NCBI GenBank assembly: GCA_963777935.1 | Contig: CAVZSL010000006.1 | Span: 317,287-341,286 of the forward strand | Direction: 5' to 3' | Source: an uncultured Chloroflexia bacterium | GTDB lineage: Bacteria > Chloroflexota > Anaerolineae > Anaerolineales > UBA4823 | Length of the DNA stretch: 24,000 bases | In this document: positions 263-11,897 of the stretch, piece by piece | Layout: each line of letters opens with the position of its first letter | How positions within the stretch are numbered: the first letter of the stretch is position 1 | Notes under the pieces: generated by a model | What the model was told of the DNA's origin: nothing | The model's database searches: none | What the model saw: only the letters and a program-made list of their open reading frames with translations | Made by a program: the position numbers and the translations under genes

Positions 263-739
263 TTAAGCATGCACAACTTCCAAGCTATCCAATAATTCCA
301 ATATCTCAGCATTGGATGGAATATCGGTCATATCATGACCATAATGTACATAACGAGCAACCCCATCATTATCCACGATCACCTGGGCTGGCATGCGCCC
401 AAATTTGAACAGGTTGATTTCCTGACCGTATAACTTGAGAACGCTTGCTTTAGGATCTGGTAAGCCGATGAAAGGCAGATTGTGTGTATGAAAATAAGTT
501 GCAAAGGCTTTGGGATCTTCTGGACCAACCACAATCACTTGAGCCTGCCGTTTGACAAATTCCTGATAATCCCTGCGCAACTGCGCCATATGCATTCGGC
601 AGAATGGTCAGGTAAAACCGCGGTTAAAAACCAACAATACACTCGATGTGCCTCGATAGTCGGATAAGTGTATTGTTTTACCTTTATAATCTATAAGGGT
701 AAAATCAGGCGCAGGGGTATTCAACGAGACTCTTGGCAT
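263..739 (-). CDS. Peroxiredoxin-like (AhpC/TSA-redoxin family) thiol-disulfide oxidoreductase, probable selenoprotein; 158 codons with in-frame TGA (U44) at 608..610
   Basis: The ORF track gives only 263..595 (MHMAQL...). Reading the same frame upstream gives MPRVSLNTPAPDFTLIDYKGKTIHLSDYRGTSSVLLVFNRGFT-TGA-PFCRMHMAQLRRDYQEF... This is a canonical redoxin N-terminus (APDFTL, LSDYRG, VLLVF), and the TGA sits where Cys homologues carry the first Cys of CxxC. The ATG at 737..739 is preceded by AAGGAAG. The next upstream stop in frame is at 767..769. Confidence 0.72.
545..604 (-). promoter_or_regulatory. Candidate bacterial SECIS-like stem-loop immediately 3' of the in-frame UGA
   Basis: On the mRNA, CUGCCG (602..597) can pair with CGGCAG (550..545). 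An apical GCGC-AGUU-GCGC hairpin lies at 586..575, and its loop begins 25 nt after the UGA. Hand-folded only; the asymmetric internal region is not convincingly paired. Confidence 0.3.
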
Positions 740-1724
740 TGGTTTCTTCCTTAGGTTGAGTATCATTCAGATATTTGATTACAGCCTCCAAAAACGCTTG
801 TGGTTTTTCCTCATGTGGTACATGCCCGGATTCAGCGATCACCACCAGGCTGGCATTGGGTAGCTCGGCTGCCAGGCGGATGCTATCTTTGGTAGGGATT
901 ATGCGGTCGTCATCGCCGGTAATCACCAATACTGGCACACTTATCTCATCCAGTCGTTTGGTTAAACCAATTGGCCGGTTGGCAAGGGTGAACTCCCACA
1001 GCGCTTTATCCCAATTCTCAACCTGGTAAGGTTTCTTATAAAACTCCATCATCTCCGGGGGTAATAATGCAGGGTTATGCCAGGCCAATTTGATTAAATC
1101 AGGACCGCGTTTTAAGATCTGGCGGGCGATCAATGGTCCCAGGCGACGCATTTGTGGGGTTGCAAGGATGGGCTTCATCCATTGCGGGGCCCCTCCACCG
1201 TTATAAACGGCCGGATCGACCAGGATCAGTGCTGAAACACGCTGCGGATATGCCAGTGTTGTCTGCATTGCCACAGTTCCCCCTGCTGAGTTGCCCACCA
1301 GAATAGCCCTCTGAATACTAAAGTGATCCAGTAATTTCACCGCTATCTCTACCTGCGTCTCAGCGCTGTAGGGGTTCTGTCTTTGCCAGGTTAGGGGACG
1401 CTCAGAGAGGCCAAACCCAGTGCGGTCATAGGCAATCACCGTTCCAAGCCGGCTAAGGGGTTCCATGACATCATGCCAGGAGTACAAGCTGGAAGCAAAT
1501 CCATGCATTAGAAGAAAAACTGGCTCACCCTGTCCCATCTTTTTTACGTGGATATCCAACCCATTAATCGCAACGAATTGGGAGTCTTCATCTGCCAATA
1601 CCTGGGGAGGGAAGGTATTTTTAAGTGGTTTTATAGGAATAAGCAAGGGTCCAACCGCCACAACGACCAATCCGCCTGCTAATATTAGGAAACTATTACG
1701 CTTTCGGGACCGATGCATGCTCAT
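705..1724 (-). CDS. Membrane-anchored alpha/beta-fold hydrolase
   Basis: 339 aa. N-terminal TM segment FLILAGGLVVVAVGPLL, HGFASS region, nucleophile elbow GNSAGG, and GDDDRIIP plus SGHVPHEE near the C-terminus (Asp/His of the triad). The 3' end overlaps the redoxin gene start by 35 nt. Confidence 0.85.
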   Translation of the reverse strand: MSMHRSRKRNSFLILAGGLVVVAVGPLLIPIKPLKNTFPPQVLADEDSQFVAINGLDIHVKKMGQGEPVFLLMHGFASSLYSWHDVMEPLSRLGTVIAYDRTGFGLSERPLTWQRQNPYSAETQVEIAVKLLDHFSIQRAILVGNSAGGTVAMQTTLAYPQRVSALILVDPAVYNGGGAPQWMKPILATPQMRRLGPLIARQILKRGPDLIKLAWHNPALLPPEMMEFYKKPYQVENWDKALWEFTLANRPIGLTKRLDEISVPVLVITGDDDRIIPTKDSIRLAAELPNASLVVIAESGHVPHEEKPQAFLEAVIKYLNDTQPKEETNAKSLVEYPCA

Positions 1725-1731
1725 ATTTCGA

Positions 1732-2505
1732 TTATTGAACAGGTTGAACTGAAGATGTTTTATCAGGCATAATGAATGCCAATATCAGGGTCATGGCCAC
1801 CAGTCCGAAGGTGATCCAGGTGGGAATGGCGATCGCAGGGATATTCGCAAATTTGACCGAAATTCCTGCCAAAGCCCACAGGATAACCGCGGTATAGGCA
1901 ATGTCTCGCCGGGAAAAATTCATCAATGTAGCGATCACAAACACCGCCACCAGGATGATATACATCCAGACTTCAGCGGCAATCCCGAATCCATCCCAAT
2001 TCAGGAAATAGAGCAATTCGGTGATATTGGCAATCGTCGCTACCGTTATCCAACCCAGGTAGATACTGAATGGTACGCGTACTGCCCAGGTCTCTGCCCT
2101 AGAGACACTACTCCGACCAGTGCCCAGACCCAGGTAGGTGATAATGAGTGTGCCAAGCAATACCAACATGGCGACCAGTGTCAAAGTGAACAGCTCATAG
2201 TGCCACAGGAAGATCCAGGCGATGTTTGCTAATCCTCCGAGGGCTATCCACCAACCAGTAGCTCGCAGGCGTGGATTCTCACGTTGAGAAGGAAGCGCCT
2301 GAAAGATGGCAAAGGCAATTAATCCGATATAAATCACACCCCAAATAGCAAATACATAGCCGGCAGGCACAAAATAAACCTTAAAGCGATCTGAGATTGC
2401 ACCAGTATTTAAGCCATTAATGGGCAAGGCATTGGCAAGCACGTTGACCACGATGGTAGCAAGAATAGTCAATGCTACAGAAACTTGTCGTAGGATATCT
2501 TTCAT
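1732..2505 (-). CDS. TspO/MBR-related tryptophan-rich integral membrane protein (putative)
   Basis: 257 aa and polytopic. The N-terminal NALPINGLNTGAISDRF...FVPAGYVFAIWGVIYIGL and the Trp-rich WWIALGGLANIAWIFLWHYE resemble the long 'tryptophan-rich sensory protein' homologues as I remember them. Not HMM-verified. Confidence 0.5.
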   Translation of the reverse strand: MKDILRQVSVALTILATIVVNVLANALPINGLNTGAISDRFKVYFVPAGYVFAIWGVIYIGLIAFAIFQALPSQRENPRLRATGWWIALGGLANIAWIFLWHYELFTLTLVAMLVLLGTLIITYLGLGTGRSSVSRAETWAVRVPFSIYLGWITVATIANITELLYFLNWDGFGIAAEVWMYIILVAVFVIATLMNFSRRDIAYTAVILWALAGISVKFANIPAIAIPTWITFGLVAMTLILAFIMPDKTSSVQPVQ

Positions 2506-2506
2506 G

Positions 2507-2887
2507 TTATTCTCTCACTTTCAATTCTAATATAGTATTTTTTCGTCCATCCCGATTTCCGGTCCAAGAAAATATTGTTTTCATTAGACCGTATTTTTTA
2601 CTCAACAAGCGATCGACCATACGGTCGATTTCCTGATTCGAGATTTCGCGGGCTTCTGCTTGAACCCAATCGCTAAGTAACGTGCCATCCATTTTACATG
2701 GTGCAATGTTCACCTGTGAATTATAACGGATGCGTTTCACCTTCCCTGAATCAGCAATTGTGCGGATATATAACTCTTGACCATCCTGGACAAACCAAAC
2801 TGGAGTTCTCACACCCACACCGCTCTTCCGGAAGGTTTCCAGATTTAGATATTTTTGTTTTTCAAACGCGGGAAACATAATAATCAT
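2507..2887 (-). CDS. Pyridoxamine 5'-phosphate oxidase-like (PPOX class, possibly F420/flavin-dependent) protein
   Basis: 126 aa. [47 protein letters not shown] resembles small PPOX-class split-barrel proteins. The start ATG overlaps the photolyase stop (ATGA at 2884..2887), and the stop lies 1 nt before the next gene's start. Confidence 0.6.
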
Positions 2888-4285
2888 CTTCCTCCTTTAC
2901 GATAAGCTGCCAATGCGCGTTCCCTTGCCATGGCATGGTCAACGATTGGGGCAGGATAGTTCTTTCCGATCACACAACCCACCTGAGTTTGCATATTGGT
3001 AGGCATCTTCCATGGCGTGTGGATAAATGCATCTGGAACTCGTGATAACTCCGGAACCCAGTGGCGTACATAGGCGCCCAGTGGATCGTATTTTTTCCCT
3101 TGCAGGACAGGATTGAATAGCCTGAAATATGGCACTGCATCGGTACCAGTGCCAGCTATCCATTGCCAACCACCATTATTGGCTGCCGGATCACCATCAA
3201 GCAGGTGCTGCATAAAATATCGCTCTCCCTGCCGCCAATCGATCAATAAATCTTTGGTCAGGAATGAAGCTGTGATCATGCGCGCCCGGTTATGCATCCA
3301 ACCGGTGGCATTTAGCTGGCGCATACCAGCATCCACCACTGGATACCCGGTGTATCCATTAACCCAGGCATCATATCCAACTGCGTCATCCCGCCATGGG
3401 ATCTTACGCAGCTCTGGACGGAAGGCGCCCTGGCGCACATGTGGAAAATGATAGAGGATGGTGGCATAAAACTCACGCCAGATCAGCTCGTTCAGCCAGG
3501 TTTTGACACTTTGACGTACTGTTGGGTCTGTTGCTAATGCCTCCGCTTCATGTGCTGCCCATGCTGCCTGCCTGGCTGAAAGCATACCAAAACGCAGGTA
3601 GGGCGATAAACCTGATGTACCTTCTACATCCAAGCGGTTGCGATCTTCGGTATAACGATTGATCAACGAATCAGTGAACCTTGCCAACCTCGTTTGTGCC
3701 TCTTCTTCACCAGCAGGAAATAATTCTTTATATGAATAACCTGGAAAATCAGGCGATAACCATGCTAATAAGGGGAGGTAAAGCAGGCAATCGCTCAGGT
3801 GGCGGGAGTGGTTTGCCAGGAAAAGGCAGGCTGTGCCACATCCGGCTGAATGGTGTGAACATAATATACGGTGAGCCATTGGGCTTTAGCAGTTCTTCAG
3901 CAGGGTGAACGGTGATGCCATTGGTAAGCTCGAGTGGTAATTCACGTATCACGCGTGCATCGCGCTGCCTACCGTATGGTGAAACATCTGCCTCGGCAAA
4001 GATACCTTCAACTTCAGCCTCATAACACAAACTTCGCAGCACATCCAGGGGTTGTCCCTTTCGTATGATAAGCTTGCTCCCCCGCTGGCGTAATTCTGAA
4101 TCGAGTGAACGTAAACCCTCAAACAGGAAAGCTAAACGCTGTTGGCTGATGTATGGCGAGTCCAGTAACTTGGGGTCAATGATAAATACCGGGATGACCA
4201 CTTCTGCCTTTAATAAGGCAGTTGCCAATGCCTGGTTATCTCGCAAGCGTAAGTCTCGGCGAATCCACCAAATTGCTCTTTTCAT
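2884..4285 (-). pseudogene. phr: Deoxyribodipyrimidine photolyase (cryptochrome/photolyase family) split by a frameshift into 3749..4285 (N-terminal alpha/beta domain) and 2884..3879 (FAD-binding domain)
   Basis: The N-terminal ORF begins MKRAIWWIRRDLRLRDNQAL...[12 protein letters not shown]. The C-terminal ORF contains [81 protein letters not shown]. The two frames overlap at 3749..3879. Genuine sequence resumes in the second frame at ...[20 protein letters not shown], so the shift lies at about 3750..3790 and looks like one extra nt. Confidence 0.85.
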
Positions 4286-5538
4286 CAGATAGTCTCTTCA
4301 GCCACCTTCTCGCGGTTAGCTGGACGGATGATACGCCAATAGGCAAGGACAATCGTCCAGGCCATCAGGATAGCACTAAAAACACCTGGCGCCCATACAC
4401 CCAGATGTTGCAGCAGGTAACCCCCGGCGATAGGGGCAATAATTCGGGTCACTGCTTCGAGAGATGTGGTTATACCAAGAATACCTCCCACTTCCTGTCG
4501 TGTGACGGATTTGGTGGTAGTACTTTGGATAATGGTATTCGATACCCCTCCAGCAACTGCCAGAGGCAAGATCAATACCACCAGGATCCATAGCTGTGTA
4601 GCAAAAGACCAGGCGAGTAATGCGCCAGCCATGACCCATAGTCCGGTGATCATCAAGGAATTTTCTCGGAAGCGACGGGTCAGGAAACCAATCAACCCAG
4701 CTTGGGTCACCACGGCTAAGACTCCCACATACGCCAGCAAAATCCCAGTAGTCTGCGAGCTCAAGCCAATCGTCTGAGCATAAAGGGCAAATATGGTTTG
4801 AAATATAGCAAAAGCGAGTGCGTAGAAGAACCGTACCTGGAGCAGGGGACCAACTTTTGGACGATTAAGCGCCTCCTTGAGAGCATTAAATGTGAACGGT
4901 GGACGTCTTTGCCCGGATATAGTACTCCTTCGGTCAGCGGAAAGTGATTCAGGTAGAAAAAATATGATCATTAGCACGTTGATGAAGGATACTGAAGCAG
5001 CTACAAAGGCAGGTAAGCTGTATCCCCACTTGCTGAGTGCGCCGCCTACAGCTGGTCCGATAATGAAACCCAGTCCAAATGCCGCACCGATCAATCCCAA
5101 GCCTTTGGCGCGGTTTTGATCATCCGTGACATCGGTGATATATGCCTGTGCGACTGTGATATTACCTCCAGTCAGTCCATCGATGACACGACTTAAAAAC
5201 AACACTGCCAAGACAAATGCATTTGCCGCTTGTGGAGCAATCAAATCCGCTAAGAAATGACCGATGGGATCGGCAAAACCAAGCAGCAAGAATCCAATTC
5301 CTGTACCAATCACGCTTATCAGCAAGACCGGTCGTCGGCCAATTCGGTCTGATAATCTCCCAAGCAAAGGCGCACCGATCAACTGAGCTGCTGCATAGGA
5401 TGCTACCAGCAAGCCAACAATAGTCGGAGTTGCACCGTAGGCTTCAGCATAATACGGTAATAAGGGTAAGATCAGGCTAAAACCCAACAGATCGATAAAA
5501 ACAATTAGAAAAATGGTCAACAAACGCGAATTTTTCAT
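4285..5538 (-). CDS. MFS transporter (DHA1/Tet-like family)
   Basis: 417 aa, about 12 TM. LLGFSLILPLLPYYAEAYGATP and the GRLSDRIGRRPVLL motif (MFS loop 2-3). The stop overlaps the photolyase start by 1 nt (TGATG). Confidence 0.85.
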   Translation of the reverse strand: MKNSRLLTIFLIVFIDLLGFSLILPLLPYYAEAYGATPTIVGLLVASYAAAQLIGAPLLGRLSDRIGRRPVLLISVIGTGIGFLLLGFADPIGHFLADLIAPQAANAFVLAVLFLSRVIDGLTGGNITVAQAYITDVTDDQNRAKGLGLIGAAFGLGFIIGPAVGGALSKWGYSLPAFVAASVSFINVLMIIFFLPESLSADRRSTISGQRRPPFTFNALKEALNRPKVGPLLQVRFFYALAFAIFQTIFALYAQTIGLSSQTTGILLAYVGVLAVVTQAGLIGFLTRRFRENSLMITGLWVMAGALLAWSFATQLWILVVLILPLAVAGGVSNTIIQSTTTKSVTRQEVGGILGITTSLEAVTRIIAPIAGGYLLQHLGVWAPGVFSAILMAWTIVLAYWRIIRPANREKVAEETI

Positions 5539-5582
5539 TGGTAATACTCTAATCAGCTATACTAAACTGGCCACCCAATTGT

Positions 5583-6878
5583 TTATAGGGACATCTCATA
5601 CTTTGCCAGCTGGACTTGTATGATCGATGCATCTTCTCCAAGGTAATGTTCAACCTCAATGCGATATGTGGCGTAATATTCATTCACCAATGATGCGGAG
5701 AGACCATAAGTTTTAAACATGCCATTCAACCAGAAAATGGTGTGATCTAATAAATTAATATCACCTAATTCAAGTGCTGATGTAATGGACTGGTTGAGGT
5801 TTTCATTGGCATTGTCCAATTGAGCTGGTTTAATCAGCGCAGAACGAAAAGAAGAGGATACATGCGTCACAACAGCCCATTCATTTTGAAGATATTTTGT
5901 CAATATTTGGGTATATTGGAGAGGTACAGGTAATGCGGAGGGCATTGGAGGAGGTGCAGAAATGAGTTGTTCAACCGTCTGGGGAATGCTTTCCACATCA
6001 GTTCCCAGGAAATAGCCTGAGATACACTTGGTGGCGGCAGGAACCTGGTTAAAAATTCCACCTCCATACGCCAGAGGTACAGACTGTGTGATTAGGTATT
6101 CAGACACTGCGCGGAGTGAAGCGGCAGTTTTGAGTGTCTGAGCAGTCGAGAGTATCAGAATTGGTGATGTGGATCGGATGGTTGCATCCAGGTCTATGAG
6201 AGGCACATTGGACCCGAGATAAACCACATCCCAACCACGCCTTCGAAGCAAGAAAGTGATTACCAATAAAATGAAATCGTGTTCCTCACCCGGTGGGCAG
6301 GCTGTCAGGATACATCCTGGTCGAATGGGTGGGGCAGCTGCTGCCAGGAGAGTATTAATACGCCGAATGGCGATGGCCGACGTGAAATGCTCCTGTTGAA
6401 CACTTACAGACCCAGAGTACCATCCCTCCCCGACCAGTGCCAGGCCTTTCTGAAGAACTTCGCTAATGGTCATTTCTGGGGCAGTCACAGCGAATGCTTC
6501 ATCAAGTATTCGGTTGGCACCCTGGTCGTCAAACGCTAAACAAGCCGATACCCATCGCGCTCGCAGAATATCTAATATACTTTCACCCGTTCCGATTTCA
6601 GGTACAGGTGTTCGACCATGTTGTAAGCTATCCTGATCATATTGGTGTTGGTTTTTCCACATTTCCATGGCGCTACTGATGCTCAATCCTTCTGCTTGCC
6701 TCTCGATCAACCATTTCAGCATCTCGATATCTTGTCTGGAGTAGAGCCGGTGTCCACCGGGCGACCGCTTGGGCTTGAGAAGATCATATCTCCGCTCCCA
6801 AGCCCGTAAAGTCACTGGGTTTATCCCAACCTCATTGGTCACAGCTTTTAGATTATAGAGGGGTGTATTGTCTACCAT
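5583..6878 (-). CDS. MerR-family transcriptional regulator with cobalamin-binding domain (CarH/LitR-like light sensor) plus ~125-aa C-terminal extension
   Basis: N-terminal MerR HTH (YNLKAVTNEVGINPVTLRAWERRYDLLKPKRSPGGHRLYSRQDIEMLKWL). W153-x9-E163-H164 (GEGWYSGSVSVQQEHF) matches the Wx9EH motif of AdoCbl photoreceptors. The Rossmann-like B12 domain is CPPGEEH200DFILLVITFLLRRRGWDVVYLGSNVP ... AYGGG. Residues ~306-431 have no domain I recognise. Confidence 0.85.
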   Translation of the reverse strand: MVDNTPLYNLKAVTNEVGINPVTLRAWERRYDLLKPKRSPGGHRLYSRQDIEMLKWLIERQAEGLSISSAMEMWKNQHQYDQDSLQHGRTPVPEIGTGESILDILRARWVSACLAFDDQGANRILDEAFAVTAPEMTISEVLQKGLALVGEGWYSGSVSVQQEHFTSAIAIRRINTLLAAAAPPIRPGCILTACPPGEEHDFILLVITFLLRRRGWDVVYLGSNVPLIDLDATIRSTSPILILSTAQTLKTAASLRAVSEYLITQSVPLAYGGGIFNQVPAATKCISGYFLGTDVESIPQTVEQLISAPPPMPSALPVPLQYTQILTKYLQNEWAVVTHVSSSFRSALIKPAQLDNANENLNQSITSALELGDINLLDHTIFWLNGMFKTYGLSASLVNEYYATYRIEVEHYLGEDASIIQVQLAKYEMSL

Positions 6879-6956
6879 ACCGATTACTTTCGCCTTTAAT
6901 AAATATATATTATTTAAGAAACTGCGTACACCCTATTTACATTAATCTGCAAAAAT

Positions 6957-7727
6957 TTATACCGGTGCTAAGGTGCCTGCAAAGATGATCCATGCCAGGA
7001 CGGTCTTTGCAGTCAGGCTCAGGATCACATACACCCGTTCACCAAACAAATAATCTTTCCATGGACCAACCTTCTTATATTGCAAAACCATGTTAATTGC
7101 AAAGATATTGAAGAACACAAAAAGGGTTGGGATGATGGCATATACGAAAGCAGGTGGTTTGCCACCTTCCCCTACTAAAGATCCCAAGAAGTAGGTCACA
7201 ATTACGATCCAGGGGACAATCCCTGCAATGCAACCAAAAATGAAAGCGGTCCAGTTGGTTTTCTGCGTATTCTGGTTGTGAAGCTCCATCAAGAGCCCAA
7301 ACAGGTTCATCATGGCGTTGATGCCAAAGATAAGAATGATGGCGCCAAGGTCATAAATACCTACCAGCATTCCAATCAGCACGATCATCACAGACGAAGA
7401 AAGTGCATATTCATAAAACCGGACTGGGTTCATGCCCTTTTTTAAGTTGGAAACATATAACTTATAGCCAACTGTAGCGAGGAAGAAATGCGCTACTGCC
7501 GAGAGAAGTAGAAATACGGCTACCGCTGGACCAAAGAGTAATTCAGCAGCTATCTTTGGATCGGGTACTAAAGCCATTGTTGCTGTATCAAACTTGAGGA
7601 AATTAGTGTAAATTGGATAAGCGGTATCATTGCTTAGTATGATCATCAGGAAGCCCTGTATCAAGTGCAAAAAACCCATGCTTAAGTTAAAACGTCGTAA
7701 TCCTAAATACTTTTTTTCTTCGTCCAT
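6957..7727 (-). CDS. Heliorhodopsin (retinal-binding 7-TM photoreceptor)
   Basis: 256 aa. FLHLIQ (H21), AVAHFF (H80), RFYEYALSSSVMIVLI (E106), FGCIAGIVPWI, FVYAIIPTLFVFFN and GERVYVILSLTAKTVLAW (K241, codon 7005..7007) parallel the conserved blocks of heliorhodopsin 48C12 as I recall it. AGGAGA lies 5 nt upstream of the ATG. Confidence 0.85.
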   Translation of the reverse strand: MDEEKKYLGLRRFNLSMGFLHLIQGFLMIILSNDTAYPIYTNFLKFDTATMALVPDPKIAAELLFGPAVAVFLLLSAVAHFFLATVGYKLYVSNLKKGMNPVRFYEYALSSSVMIVLIGMLVGIYDLGAIILIFGINAMMNLFGLLMELHNQNTQKTNWTAFIFGCIAGIVPWIVIVTYFLGSLVGEGGKPPAFVYAIIPTLFVFFNIFAINMVLQYKKVGPWKDYLFGERVYVILSLTAKTVLAWIIFAGTLAPV

Positions 7728-7773
7728 TGTTGTCTCCTATTCTGTTATTGCCTGCTATATATTCTTATCCATC

Positions 7774-7848
7774 TCTATAGAAGGATTGATTGAAAATTTA
7801 GCAAATGTACACATTGTGTATAAATAATAATAACATATTGTATAGATA
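7774..7848 (-). promoter_or_regulatory. Heliorhodopsin promoter region with four tandem 11-bp direct repeats (candidate CarH/LitR-type operator)
   Basis: The minus strand reads TATCTATACAA (7848..7838), TATGTTATTAT (7837..7827), TATTTATACAC (7826..7816), AATGTGTACAT (7815..7805). All four have A at position 2 and T at position 5, and three have ACA at positions 8-10. The array abuts TTGCTA (7804..7799, -35-like). TATAGA/TCTATA (-10-like) lies 17-19 bp further on, about 45 nt before the ATG. Confidence 0.45.
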
Positions 7849-8089
7849 TTGGCAAGATTATTTAGATTAAGGTTTGATTAAAAAGCTGAGATTCCATCAC
7901 TTCGGGAAAAGTGAGTTATAACTCCAACAGCCCCCATCAAAAGATACGCAGGTGCAATGCAAATAGGCTACTAGATTTTTCAACCAAATCCACCTGATTT
8001 TTCCCCTGATAAGTTAAAAATTTTTGCCTTATTCTGTAAATCTTCTTGCCGGTTGGTACTAGAAAAAATTTTCCTTTGGTCAGTGATTA

Positions 8090-8129
8090 AAACAAAGAAA
8101 AAATGAGTGTATATCTGTGTTTCTCACTC
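8090..8129 (-). terminator. Weak rho-independent terminator candidate after crtI
   Basis: On the minus strand, GAGTG (8129..8125) / CACTC (8109..8105) form a 5-bp stem with a 15-nt loop, followed directly by ATTTTTTCTTTGTTTT. The stem overlaps the crtI stop codon. Confidence 0.3.
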
Positions 8130-9614
8130 CAATCCTGCAAGCTCATCCACAATCCTCTTTGCCGCCAAACGACCAGAGATCATGGCTGTTGGTATGCCCG
8201 TGCCAGGGCGGGTACTTGCCCCCACAAAGTACAGGTTGCGATACCGTGGGTGTCGGTTGGATGGGCGAAAATAGCCTAATTGGCCCAGGTTATGTGACAA
8301 ACCGTGTGTGGAACCCTTCACCAGGTTATATCGTTTCCGCCAGGAAAGGGGAGTAAAAGAGACTTCAAACTTGATGTGGGTATGGAGATCAGTGATTCCC
8401 AACAATGCCAATCGACGGAACACATGTGCACGCGCCTGATCTGTCAATTCGTCCCAATCCTGGGATCCATCTTCAGACAGGTGACCCACAGGCACGACTG
8501 CGATCAGGGTATCTTCACCGGGCGGAGCCATTGAAGAGTCGAGCTGCTTGGGAGCGTGAATATAAAGACTTGGATTGGCAGGAAGGCCAAGCTCATTTGT
8601 GATGGTATCGAAGTTTGACTGAAAATCATCTGCCAGAAAAAGGGTGTGCGGATCAAGAATCTTATAGGGTTTATCAACTCCCCAGAAGAAACTGATCACT
8701 GAGCAGGAATAGCGTTTTCGGGTCATCTTTTCAGCCCGGTAATCTATGGGCAGGAGATCCTGATAAACATATGGCAAATCAGCATTCGCCAGGACCAAAT
8801 CTGGTGATTCACGCTGGTTATGTTCAAGTACCAACTCCTCTACTCGCTTGCCGTTTGCAGTAATTTGCTCCACGGTTGTATCGAAAGCAAATTCCACCCC
8901 GGCATTGCGGGCCAATGTCATAAGCGCTTCCACGATGCTATACATTCCACCCTTGGGATACCATACACCGTGTGCAAGCTCTGTGTATGGCATCATAGAG
9001 AAGGTGGCAGGAGCTTCAAAGGGGCTCAGTCCCATGTACACATCCTGGAAGGTGAAGGCTGCCTTTAGGTGCGGATTCCGGAAATAACTCGACATATGGG
9101 CATAATGATTCCTCAGGGGTTTTAACTGATAGAGTAAGGGAATATTGCTGAAATTAAAAAAGTCGGAAAATCGGCGAAAATCACGGTTCACTAATTTATC
9201 CATCGCTAAACGATAATGCCGCTCACCTTCTGCATGATAGCGCATGAATCCTTGATAGGCACCATGCTCTATGGACTCCAATTGATCCCGCATGGACTGC
9301 ATATCTGATGTGAGTGCCAGCTGGCTGCCATCATCAAATACCAGGCGATAAGATGGATCTACCTGGTGCAACTCGAGTAAATCAGCTATCGAACCACCCA
9401 GGGAGGCAAATTCTGCCTCGTAGACAGGCTGCATAACCATCAGGGTTGGTCCGGTATCAAAGTGGTGACCCTCTCGCTCGATCCAATCACAGCGCCCACC
9501 GGGGTTGGCGTTTTTTTCCATCACAGTGACATGCAACCCATGCTTAGCCAGGTGGATTGCCGCACAAATTCCACCCACACCAGCGCCGATAATCACAACC
9601 GATTTCACCTTCAT
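8124..9614 (-). CDS. crtI: Phytoene (or diapophytoene) desaturase, CrtI family FAD oxidoreductase
   Basis: 496 aa. N-terminal dinucleotide fold VVIIGAGVGGICAAIHLAKHGLHVTVMEKNANPGGRC. C-terminal FVGASTRPGTGIPTAMISGRLAA is typical of CrtI/CrtN. Strong SD (GAGGTGAGGAAGG). The ATGA overlap with the upstream synthase gene is at 9611..9614. Confidence 0.85.
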   Translation of the reverse strand: MKVKSVVIIGAGVGGICAAIHLAKHGLHVTVMEKNANPGGRCDWIEREGHHFDTGPTLMVMQPVYEAEFASLGGSIADLLELHQVDPSYRLVFDDGSQLALTSDMQSMRDQLESIEHGAYQGFMRYHAEGERHYRLAMDKLVNRDFRRFSDFFNFSNIPLLYQLKPLRNHYAHMSSYFRNPHLKAAFTFQDVYMGLSPFEAPATFSMMPYTELAHGVWYPKGGMYSIVEALMTLARNAGVEFAFDTTVEQITANGKRVEELVLEHNQRESPDLVLANADLPYVYQDLLPIDYRAEKMTRKRYSCSVISFFWGVDKPYKILDPHTLFLADDFQSNFDTITNELGLPANPSLYIHAPKQLDSSMAPPGEDTLIAVVPVGHLSEDGSQDWDELTDQARAHVFRRLALLGITDLHTHIKFEVSFTPLSWRKRYNLVKGSTHGLSHNLGQLGYFRPSNRHPRYRNLYFVGASTRPGTGIPTAMISGRLAAKRIVDELAGLE

Positions 9615-10579
9615 CCTTCCTCACCTCGATCGGTCAGTGCTGCTTGCAAACCGGGTTCCAGGCTCATCCAAGGAATGTTTAATACCGATAATGTTGTCCT
9701 CCAGACCATCCACAATCCGGCCTTAAGACTTTTCCGTTCAGGGTATTCAGGACGAAGATAATATCCGTCCTGTTCTATAGCTCGCATCATCCATTCGAAA
9801 CGGGCCAGGTAAGCAAAACCTGCCAGGCGACAACGAAAACTTTTAACCTGAGCGATATAGCTCCTGCCATCCTTAAAATATTGACGGGCAAGCTTCACCC
9901 TCCCAAAAACCCACCTGCGGAAAGACAGGCTATGTAATTCATCCAGCGAAATTTGCTGTTCGGTGATGTATTCTCCAGGAACATTGATATACCCTGCGGA
10001 AATATCTTCAACCACATCGCGCAGCATATGCACCACATGGGCGCCATTCACAGCATCATAGCGGTTTTTAGTTCTGGTAGGAGAATCCTCATGACCAATA
10101 AAGTAGAATAATAGCTCCGTCACTGCTGTGGAAAGTAAATGTGTATACTCGGTTAATTCAGCCTGGGAGATCACTTGACCGCAGCGTTCCACGTCAAAAG
10201 CCATTACTGCCATCATATTGCGGAGGTAGATTTGTAATCCACTGTCCTTTTTCCCATCATTTCGGACCAAATCCACCAGCATCTGCTCCTCCAGACTCAC
10301 ATCATCAGGTTGGTTTCCTTGATAACATGCTTCCAAAAGTGCCTGCTGGCTTTTTATTAATGCAACCTTCTCCGGTTGTGTGCCTGAATCACAGTCGAGG
10401 AGATCGTCCAACCAGCGGAAGTAGGCGTAAGACCGAAATGCATCCTGCACGCGATCTCGATCGGTTAAAAGACGGAACGTATAATAGGTTTGCTTACTTC
10501 CGGCCTTGGTGATCTTGGCAGGTAAATCGGATTTACCCGGTTGCACAGGTAGTCTTTGATTTATTGGGTTATTGACCAT
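9611..10579 (-). CDS. crtB: Phytoene/squalene synthase family protein (CrtB/CrtM-like)
   Basis: 322 aa. First Asp-rich motif YFRWLDDLLD, second motif MLRDVVEDISAGYINVPGEY. Directly coupled to crtI. Confidence 0.78.
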   Translation of the reverse strand: MVNNPINQRLPVQPGKSDLPAKITKAGSKQTYYTFRLLTDRDRVQDAFRSYAYFRWLDDLLDCDSGTQPEKVALIKSQQALLEACYQGNQPDDVSLEEQMLVDLVRNDGKKDSGLQIYLRNMMAVMAFDVERCGQVISQAELTEYTHLLSTAVTELLFYFIGHEDSPTRTKNRYDAVNGAHVVHMLRDVVEDISAGYINVPGEYITEQQISLDELHSLSFRRWVFGRVKLARQYFKDGRSYIAQVKSFRCRLAGFAYLARFEWMMRAIEQDGYYLRPEYPERKSLKAGLWMVWRTTLSVLNIPWMSLEPGLQAALTDRGEEG

Positions 10580-10775
10580 GGCATTAGCAGTTTTCCTGGT
10601 TTCGACCTACAAGTATACTCCTGAAATTATTACAGAGAATCATGTCTCCTTCCTCAGAAAATCATAAGTTTTTCTGTATATTTATTCCCCTAAGTAACGT
10701 GAATGTCTCCCCGTTCACTAGTAGTGATAAGATTAACAAAATATTAGGACGAGATATTTACGTCTGGAGGGTATT

Positions 10776-11897
10776 ATGGACGCTGACATGCAAGCTACGG
10801 CATTAGCTAGCCTGAACGATGAGCTCAATGGGGCATATCTTTATGATGCACTGGCGCAAGCTGAGAAAGATCCCCGCCTGGCAGAAGTATATCGGCGCAT
10901 GGCAGCCGTAGAGCGTAAACACGCGGCCACCTGGGTGGAACGTCTTAAGGAATCTGGTGTGGCAATCCCTAATTTTAAAACCAATTGGCGCAGTCGCACC
11001 CTGGCTTGGGCAGCCAAACACCTGGGTGTGGGAGCGGTATTACCCACTGTGATTGGGAATGAGCGCAAAGATACTCGCAAATATGCCTACACTCCGGGTG
11101 GCGCAGAGATGGGAGCAGATGAAGCATCCCATAACCGGTTGTTGAGCCTTGTGGCCAGGGATATGAAAGGTGGAATGGAAGGCGGGGCACTCGCCCAACT
11201 GGAAGGCAGGCATCGTGCGGGTGGAGGGAATGCCCTACGGGCAGCGGTATTGGGAGCTAATGATGGGCTGGTATCCAACTTGAGCCTGGTGATGGGTGTG
11301 GCAGGTGCTTCTCTGAATAACTCGGCTATCCTGATCACTGGTTTTGCTGGACTATTGGCTGGGGCAATCTCGATGGCATTGGGTGAGTGGCTGTCGGTGC
11401 AAAGCTCCAGGGAGCTATATAAGCATCAGATCAGCATTGAGAAGGCGGAGCTTGCTGCAGCACCCCAGGAAGAAGCCGAAGAACTGGCGTTGATCTACGA
11501 GGCACGCGGCCTACCCACCGATGAAGCCCAACGCATGGCTCAGCATATCATCAGCGACCCAGAATCTGCTCTTGAAAGCCTTGCCCGTGAAGAGCTCAAC
11601 GTGGATCCTTCTGAACTGGGTGGCTCAGCCTGGGAGGCTGCCTTAACGTCCTTCTTCCTTTTCTCCATCGGTGCGATCATCCCGGTGCTGCCGTACACCT
11701 TCCTGAGAGGCACCACTGCAGTGACCGTCAGTATGGTGATGAGCGGTGTTGGGTTATTTATCATCGGCGCGGGCATCACCCTTTTTACGGGGCGAAACGT
11801 GCTGTATTCAGGCGTACGGCAGGTGTTGTTTGGCTTGGCTGCAGCCACAGTCACCTTCGGCATTGGCCGGGTGATCGGAAAGAACCTGGGTGGGTAG
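10776..11897 (+). CDS. Erythrin-VIT1 fusion: ferritin-like N-terminal domain + VIT1/CCC1 iron/manganese transporter (MbfA-like)
   Basis: 373 aa. The N-terminal di-iron-like helices are YLYDALAQAEKDPRLAEVYRRMAAVERKHAATW and DEASHNRLL. The C-terminal part has GANDGLVSNLSLVMGVAGA and the TM helices typical of the VIT family. GGAGG lies 5 nt before the ATG. Confidence 0.8.
   Translation: MDADMQATALASLNDELNGAYLYDALAQAEKDPRLAEVYRRMAAVERKHAATWVERLKESGVAIPNFKTNWRSRTLAWAAKHLGVGAVLPTVIGNERKDTRKYAYTPGGAEMGADEASHNRLLSLVARDMKGGMEGGALAQLEGRHRAGGGNALRAAVLGANDGLVSNLSLVMGVAGASLNNSAILITGFAGLLAGAISMALGEWLSVQSSRELYKHQISIEKAELAAAPQEEAEELALIYEARGLPTDEAQRMAQHIISDPESALESLAREELNVDPSELGGSAWEAALTSFFLFSIGAIIPVLPYTFLRGTTAVTVSMVMSGVGLFIIGAGITLFTGRNVLYSGVRQVLFGLAAATVTFGIGRVIGKNLGG

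Follow-up and report, generated by a model that had tools for sequence, protein, structure and literature searches.

The window, that is, the whole 24-kb stretch of DNA analysed, carries on its minus strand a heliorhodopsin gene (6957..7727) followed by the gene of a 431-residue regulator (5583..6878) that combines a MerR-type DNA-binding domain, a B12 domain and a C-terminal globin-like domain. The heliorhodopsin matches PF18761 with an E-value of 4.5e-103 and 344 bits (cutoff 26.7) and the NF038020 equivalog with 373 bits (cutoff 100), and is preceded by a ribosome-binding site, GGAGA at 7737..7733. Downstream on the same strand lie genes for an MFS transporter (4285..5538), a photolyase (2884..4285), a PNPOx-like protein (2507..2887), a tryptophan-rich membrane protein (1732..2505) and an alpha/beta hydrolase (705..1724), all assigned by Pfam except the membrane protein, which is conserved in the operon. 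This part of the putative operon (705..5538) has the same gene order in the related loci L081-L092 and in L002 and L003. Considering the short gaps after the heliorhodopsin gene and the lack of terminator-like hairpins there, the operon likely starts at heliorhodopsin, its predicted first gene. A terminator scan found none between heliorhodopsin and the regulator gene, and none in the 396-bp gap separating heliorhodopsin from the upstream crtI gene, so that read-through from crtI is possible.

Several features of the neighbouring genes deserve description. Near position 3755 a 1-base frameshift splits the photolyase gene into two overlapping open reading frames through one extra base relative to the intact 466-aa frame of the closest relative (L081), reflecting either a pseudogene or an assembly error. 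The multi-pass membrane protein at 1732..2505 has no Pfam or NCBIfam match, and the gene occupying the same slot in Anaerolineales FeB_25 is called 'tryptophan-rich sensory protein' (supplement of PMC11109279); a tetrapyrrole-handling TspO relative beside a possible bilin sensor would, if this is what it is, be of interest. Among the genes identified in the window, none encodes a heme oxygenase. On the upstream side, crtI (8124..9614) and crtB (9611..10579) are encoded on the minus strand (both by Pfam), and divergent from crtB lies a plus-strand gene (10776..11897) whose product joins a rubrerythrin-like N-terminus to a VIT1 iron-transporter domain. A 'rubrerythrin family protein' is also listed as a neighbour in Chloroflexi RBG_13_50_21 (supplement of PMC11109279).

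Repeat array and predicted promoter

CarH proteins bind tandem 11-bp direct repeats with the consensus nAnnTnnACAn (PMC8156234), given as nnnnTnnACAn in PMC9304148, and published operators contain three or four such repeats, tolerate pseudo-repeats and overlap the -35 and/or -10 elements (PMC9304148). The initial annotation had given this consensus in its published form, and had matched to it four tandem repeats upstream of the heliorhodopsin gene, a description that the sequence bears out. Within the crtI-heliorhodopsin spacer (8123..7728; 396 bp, 32% GC), positions 7848..7805 read on the minus strand as four 11-bp units in exact register, TATCTATACAA / TATGTTATTAT / TATTTATACAC / AATGTGTACAT. 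All four have A at position 2 and T at position 5, and units 1, 3 and 4 have ACA at positions 8-10; three of the four thus fit nAnnTnnACAn, and the second is a pseudo-repeat. We refer to these units as DR1 (7838..7848), dr2 (7827..7837), DR3 (7816..7826) and DR4 (7805..7815). Immediately upstream, a near-repeat, unit 0 (AATCTTGCCAA, 7849..7859), retains T5 and has CCA in place of ACA. With three full units, one pseudo-unit and one near-unit, the array contains the at least three tandem 11-bp nnnnTnnACAn units in register that characterize a CarH-type operator.

Such an arrangement is rare by chance. Counting both strands, the 24-kb window holds 48 copies of the single-unit pattern, and 11-bp register is seen at the array only. 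Three of four units in register arose in 10 of 20000 mononucleotide shuffles of the 396-bp spacer (~0.05%, or 5e-4), and 24 instances of this pattern were found in 1.216 Mb of sequence comprising the window and related loci, where 20 shuffles preserving local composition gave 0.55 on average. A weight matrix derived from 97 repeat units of other loci scored 33.7 at 7848 and 7.5 at the next unrelated place in the window, making the array the sole site of its type in 24 kb. The region before crtB (10580..10775) contains no operator by either the strict pattern or the weight matrix. The crtB-crtI pair thus stands directly 5' of the heliorhodopsin operon without CarH-type repeats, in contrast to classical CarH regulons. 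Two related loci (L082 and L083) have an array in inverted orientation before a lipoprotein gene, and crtB comes after that gene.

The matrix scan also revealed two conserved upstream units, TTAATCAAACC and TTAATCTAAAT (7860..7881), in 11-bp register with the array. In an alignment of 17 orthologous upstream regions they are conserved as TTAATCAAAnnTTAATCTA. They form a pair of TTAATC units 11 bp apart just 5' of the predicted -35 element, and are kept in most orthologous promoters; an UP-like element, degenerate repeats or the binding site of a second factor are candidate explanations for them.

The best promoter-like match in 5400..10900 falls inside the array. It consists of a predicted -35 hexamer, TTGCCA (7855..7850), a 17-bp spacer and a predicted -10 hexamer, TATTAT (7832..7827), preceded by TG at 7835..7834 (TG-T-TATTAT), and agrees with consensus at 10 of 12 positions. 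Since promoter-like matches are not enriched in this region (7 observed versus 10.3 expected), the promoter assignment rests on conservation. The -35 hexamer lies in unit 0, DR1 occupies the spacer, dr2 coincides with the -10 hexamer, which explains its departure from the repeat consensus, DR3 covers the predicted transcription start at ~7820, and DR4 falls in the predicted initial transcribed region. Both hexamers are thereby located within the array, as in published CarH operators, and the 17-bp spacing is conserved. As far as can be read from the DNA, the operator is interleaved with the predicted promoter, covering its -35, spacer, -10 and start site, and is not placed 5' of it. The initial annotation had instead proposed that the array ends directly at a -35-like TTGCTA (7804..7799). 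This hexamer does abut the array; its role as a -35 element was rejected, because it is not conserved among orthologous promoters, reading tcgata in L081 and ttatta in L086. An Rfam scan of the whole window returned no match, giving no sign of a B12 riboswitch or any other known RNA within the spacer.

Conservation of the module and its association with the regulator gene

A genome scan with the heliorhodopsin protein as query yielded 80 loci, all from Chloroflexota and mostly from Anaerolineae MAGs, with 72-88% identity. The regulator gene directly follows heliorhodopsin in only three of them (L001, L002 and L003) and lies nearby in two more (L014 and L080). A metagenome scan with the regulator gave 30 loci, and in most of those with upstream DNA the heliorhodopsin gene lies 5' of the regulator gene, with the same genes downstream. 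All loci with the heliorhodopsin-regulator order share a common module, consisting of two TTAATC units, a -35 unit, DR1, a pseudo-repeat, DR3, DR4 and sometimes a DR5; the 17-bp hexamer spacing and the five-unit architecture recur in both the genome MAGs and the metagenome contigs.

Phylogenetic footprinting of the region upstream of heliorhodopsin had been suggested as a check on the repeats, and they proved to be conserved, with invariant columns at A2, T5, A8 and A10. The -35 unit takes the form CCTTGcCAA, with CCTTGnCA conserved across loci, and in L110, L100 and L101 TTGCCA is replaced by TTGACA, completing a full repeat. DR1 appears as nAnnTnTACAA and the pseudo-repeat as TATnTTATTAT, whose positions 6-11 form a -10-like hexamer in every orthologous array (TATTAT, TATAAT, TATCAT, AATAAT or TATATT), often preceded by TGn. 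Invariant or nearly invariant columns comprise the T, A, T and final T of the -10 element (alignment columns T69, A70, T71 and T74), ACAA of DR1, T5, A8 and A10 of DR3, and A2 of DR4. Conservation ends at the edges of the module, and the sequence 3' of DR4 cannot be aligned until the ribosome-binding site GGAGA, which is invariant.

The array is closely associated with the regulator gene. When strict repeats in the five-unit register were counted within 250 bp of heliorhodopsin, at least two were present in 20 of 20 loci with the heliorhodopsin-regulator order (the window included) versus 8 of 76 heliorhodopsin loci lacking a downstream regulator, and at least three in 14 of 20 versus 1 of 76. 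The corresponding Fisher p values, ~1e-14 and ~2e-11, are uncorrected for phylogeny and overstate the independence of related loci. In three loci without heliorhodopsin (L096, L097 and L105), the same -35/DR1/-10/DR3/DR4 module stands directly before the regulator gene, which points to an autoregulatory operator of the regulator. A CarH-type operator is expected to be conserved in orthologous promoters and linked to the gene of its regulator, and both are found here. Judged by these comparisons, the array is a real, conserved CarH-type site at which binding is predicted, and the module is the regulator's own autoregulatory promoter-operator, with heliorhodopsin as the first gene behind it in this clade.

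Several loci depart from this arrangement. One locus (L091, 354..689) contains the module, then a 41-codon remnant of heliorhodopsin and then the regulator gene, and looks like a natural deletion of heliorhodopsin. Two others (L035 at 5091 and L041 at 201) have heliorhodopsin with a full array and no regulator gene within the DNA examined; the regulator may be encoded elsewhere in these genomes. The L035 array comprises six units in register, with TTGACA inside the first. Some genomes contain two heliorhodopsin genes, namely L001 and L040 in MAG MFD04716.bin.2.163, and L005 and L031 in one other MAG; in the former, the regulator gene and an array directly upstream are present at the L001 copy only. 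Further arrays occur in L005 (150 and 5348), L041 (4367), L029 (5266), L038 (129), L014 (4528) and L022 (9977). The genes behind them include a DUF2867/NAD-binding gene followed by heliorhodopsin, M50-CBS peptidases, DUF4397 lipoproteins, a 137-aa protein of unknown type followed by heliorhodopsin, and a gene divergent from heliorhodopsin, offering a glimpse of what may be a wider regulon.

The regulator and its putative light switch

The N-terminal part of the regulator resembles CarH. Its MerR domain matches PF13411 (E 4.8e-13), residues 6-274 align to T. thermophilus CarH (TtCarH; 5C8D, E 3.6e-30; also 3WHP), and the DNA-binding domain also aligns to 2JML. In the MerR domain 28 of 70 residues (40%) are identical to those of TtCarH, as in CarH/LitR class I proteins. 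The region that follows, a four-helix bundle and a Rossmann B12 domain, carries the class I signatures as well: the Wx9EH segment GEGWYSGSVSVQQEH aligns with the TtCarH motif and PPGEEH with the motif of the lower axial His (E/DxH), the corresponding stretches being GEGWYSGSVSVQQEHF and PPGEEHDF. The W, E and H of the former, like the axial H, show no variation across 46 family members. On the other hand, class I proteins consist of two modules in ~290-330 aa and exceed the 400 bits that NCBIfam sets as cutoff for its CarH equivalog, whereas this regulator scores 139.8 bits and has 431 aa with an additional globin-like domain; its length is uniform in the family (~431 aa among the top 120 homologs). 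Accordingly, of the CarH/LitR-like identity given in the initial annotation, the MerR and B12 domains and the intact Wx9EH motif stand, and the status of a plain CarH does not.

Neither Pfam nor NCBIfam matches the 147 C-terminal residues, and sequence profiles fail to reach the globin part of the photocobilin structure 8J2W. A separate model of these 147 residues is a helical domain (pLDDT 84.5), and phycobiliproteins and smURFP account for all of its best PDB matches (probability 1.0, TM ~0.6). A model of residues 100-431 (pLDDT 93.5, pTM 0.89) superposes on the photocobilins 8J2W, 8J2X and 8J2Y with TM 0.77-0.83 over 330-350 columns (E 4e-15), while CarH B12 domains cover only ~200 residues of it. 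By this fold comparison, the region at 5583..6020 (residues ~290-431) is a globin-like (photoglobin-like) domain, and the predicted structure shows it packed against the B12 domain, as in photocobilins. In the family alignment it contains a conserved Asp in an SALxLGD motif, which would be the equivalent of SasPcob Asp270, and no conserved Cys. From sequence and model, the regulator is not a canonical CarH; its action on DNA is most likely CarH-like, and it has an additional module. Given the missed equivalog cutoff and this extra domain, its oligomeric state and light response may differ from those of CarH.

We consider dark repression and light derepression of the heliorhodopsin operon by its own MerR/B12 regulator, acting through the promoter-operator module at 7859..7805, to be the probable mode of control, with a probability of about 0.75. 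This reading draws on the sequence features above and on analogy with CarH. A sigma-70-type promoter would be interleaved with 11-bp direct repeats lying all on one face of the helix, in the order -35 near-repeat, DR1, -10 pseudo-repeat, DR3 and DR4. In the dark, AdoCbl-loaded regulator, either tetrameric or arranged as two head-to-tail dimers, would occupy four to five phased repeats by means of its CarH-like winged-helix domains, covering the -35, the -10 and the start site and excluding RNA polymerase. Light would then photolyse the cofactor, the oligomer would disassemble, and the operon would be transcribed, yielding heliorhodopsin, the regulator, the MFS transporter, the photolyase, the PNPOx-like protein, the membrane protein and the hydrolase. 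Because its gene lies inside the operon that it controls, the regulator would also repress its own synthesis. DNA binding, dependence on AdoCbl and light, oligomeric state, start site, operon boundaries and any part played by the globin-like domain are inferred in this scheme, its functional steps from the known CarH systems. Heliorhodopsin would thus belong, as a light-induced component, to an operon for photoprotection and repair, and is probably made only in the light in these Chloroflexi. In the freshwater actinobacterium A. photophilum, heliorhodopsin transcripts rise in the dark (PMC8591293), so that light induction is not general to heliorhodopsin genes.

The least probable alternative is that the repeats arose incidentally in an AT-rich promoter region or form the site of an unrelated factor, with the adjacent regulator acting elsewhere. 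The 32% GC of the spacer and the fact that the -35 consensus TTGACA itself fits TnnACA lend this some plausibility, against which stand the shuffle frequency of 5e-4, the exact 11-bp phasing over 4-6 units in many loci, the coincidence of invariant columns with published contact positions, and the tight link between array and regulator gene, which extends to loci lacking heliorhodopsin; together these leave it highly improbable. Hardly better placed is the arrangement in which the array lies 5' of a promoter whose -35 is TTGCTA, the repressor blocking from the upstream side. TTGCTA directly follows the array, and L001 has TTGACG at a similar place; however, the hexamer is lost in the closest relatives (L081, L086 and L088), has no acceptable -10 element 16-18 bp to its 3' side and was not picked by the promoter scan, whereas a TTGCCA/TATTAT-type pair with 17-bp spacing is kept in all loci.

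An alternative that is still unlikely, yet clearly ahead of these two, accepts the array as the operator of the regulator and questions the protein, which would be no plain AdoCbl-dependent photoreceptor-repressor: B12-independent like CarA, steered by a bilin (red/far-red or two-colour), or dependent on a partner. In its favour, the C-terminal domain is extra, residues 100-431 fit 8J2W and 8J2Y better than CarH, and the score falls under the CarH equivalog cutoff. CarA, moreover, recognizes operators of this kind with no requirement for B12 (PMC8156234), and biliverdin-bound photocobilins respond to red light (PMC10979010). Against it, Wx9EH and the axial His, invariant in the family, are the signature of light-responsive AdoCbl domains, the window shows no heme oxygenase gene, and one characterised photocobilin binds bilin only poorly (PMC10979010). 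The dimeric state of photocobilins in the dark (PMC10979010) counts, for its part, against the preferred CarH-based reading. A related proposal, which we regard as tentative and improbable, is that the regulator is a DNA-binding photocobilin holding both AdoCbl and a bilin, placing heliorhodopsin synthesis under a two-colour switch in which B12 would sense green light and the bilin red or far-red. If that were true, four light-absorbing cofactor systems would meet in one operon: B12, bilin, retinal and the photolyase flavin. Heliorhodopsin, once made, might in turn act post-translationally on its operon partners (photolyase, MFS transporter or the regulator itself). AdoCbl-based dark repression through the interleaved operator is preferred over all of these readings. 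The core of the initial annotation, a CarH-type operator that would set heliorhodopsin under the adjacent B12-type regulator, thus finds support in the consensus match, phasing, conservation, the 20/20 versus 8/76 association and the heliorhodopsin-less loci.

Relation to known systems

The function of heliorhodopsin has been an open question since its discovery in 2018. The present analysis provides a concrete regulatory context for it in a clade of Anaerolineae, where light, acting through a B12-type photoreceptor, appears to switch on its gene along with photolyase and other photoprotection genes; this would point to a function in coping with light damage and not in capturing energy. It would also supply a candidate operator and target set for MerR-fused photocobilins, a class represented so far by domain surveys and by enzyme-linked or stand-alone members, and describe a CarH-type circuit whose primary target is other than carotenogenesis. 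The initial annotation knew of no earlier account of such a link, and a literature search of incomplete coverage found no paper connecting heliorhodopsin to CarH or, in a relevant way, to LitR; as far as we have checked, the regulatory link and its operator are undescribed. Surveys of heliorhodopsin gene neighbours do list 'cobalamin-binding proteins' (bioRxiv 10.1101/2021.02.16.431466) and a 'MerR family' group (PMC11109279).

Among operons of known type, the nearest are those in which heliorhodopsin and photolyase genes are joined, as for T. flocculiformis heliorhodopsin and the 'photolyase group' of Cho et al. (2024). The supplement of PMC11109279 shows the same operon type within this group in Chloroflexi RBG_13_50_21 and Anaerolineales FeB_25 and predicts a promoter in front of helR; in it the regulator gene bears the label 'hypothetical protein', and no operator or B12 link is proposed. 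The RBG_13_50_21 regulator is among the regulator homologs identified here. In the reading of Cho et al., heliorhodopsin modulates the proteins of its neighbours, whereas we propose that a neighbour controls heliorhodopsin transcription.

The regulator itself stands between two families. It shares with CarH/LitR class I proteins (TtCarH, 5C8D/5C8E) a MerR winged helix, a four-helix bundle with Wx9EH and a Rossmann fold with an axial His, and differs from TtCarH in its ~140 extra, globin-like C-terminal residues and in its 139.8 bits against the 400-bit equivalog cutoff. With photocobilins (8J2W, 8J2X and 8J2Y; PMC10979010, PMC8717448) it shares a predicted B12 domain and C-terminal helical globin domain that superpose throughout. 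Photocobilins combine binding of AdoCbl and biliverdin with responses to green and red light (PMC10979010). Characterised members are stand-alone or fused to a diguanylate cyclase, whereas the regulator described here is fused to a MerR domain. The combination of MerR-HTH, B12 and photoglobin domains is listed in the photoglobin survey of Schneider et al. (PMC8717448), and our literature search turned up no account of an operator or target gene for any MerR-fused photocobilin.

The operator has its counterparts in the CarH systems of B. megaterium, T. thermophilus and Myxococcales, which likewise have nAnnTnnACAn on the sense strand, overlap with the -35 and -10 elements and a regulator gene inside the regulated cluster (PMC9304148, PMC8156234). 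The T. thermophilus operator has three repeats, and Cystobacter CarH binds as two dimers (PMC9304148). The present combination of three full repeats with pseudo-repeats recalls Bacillus megaterium ('three DRs and one pseudorepeat') and M. xanthus (DR1-dr2-DR3-DR4-dr5). It differs from these operators in that a pseudo-repeat systematically forms the -10 hexamer and two extra conserved TTAATC units lie upstream, and in that the first controlled gene would be heliorhodopsin and not a carotenoid gene, the crtB-crtI pair of the window having no operator of its own.
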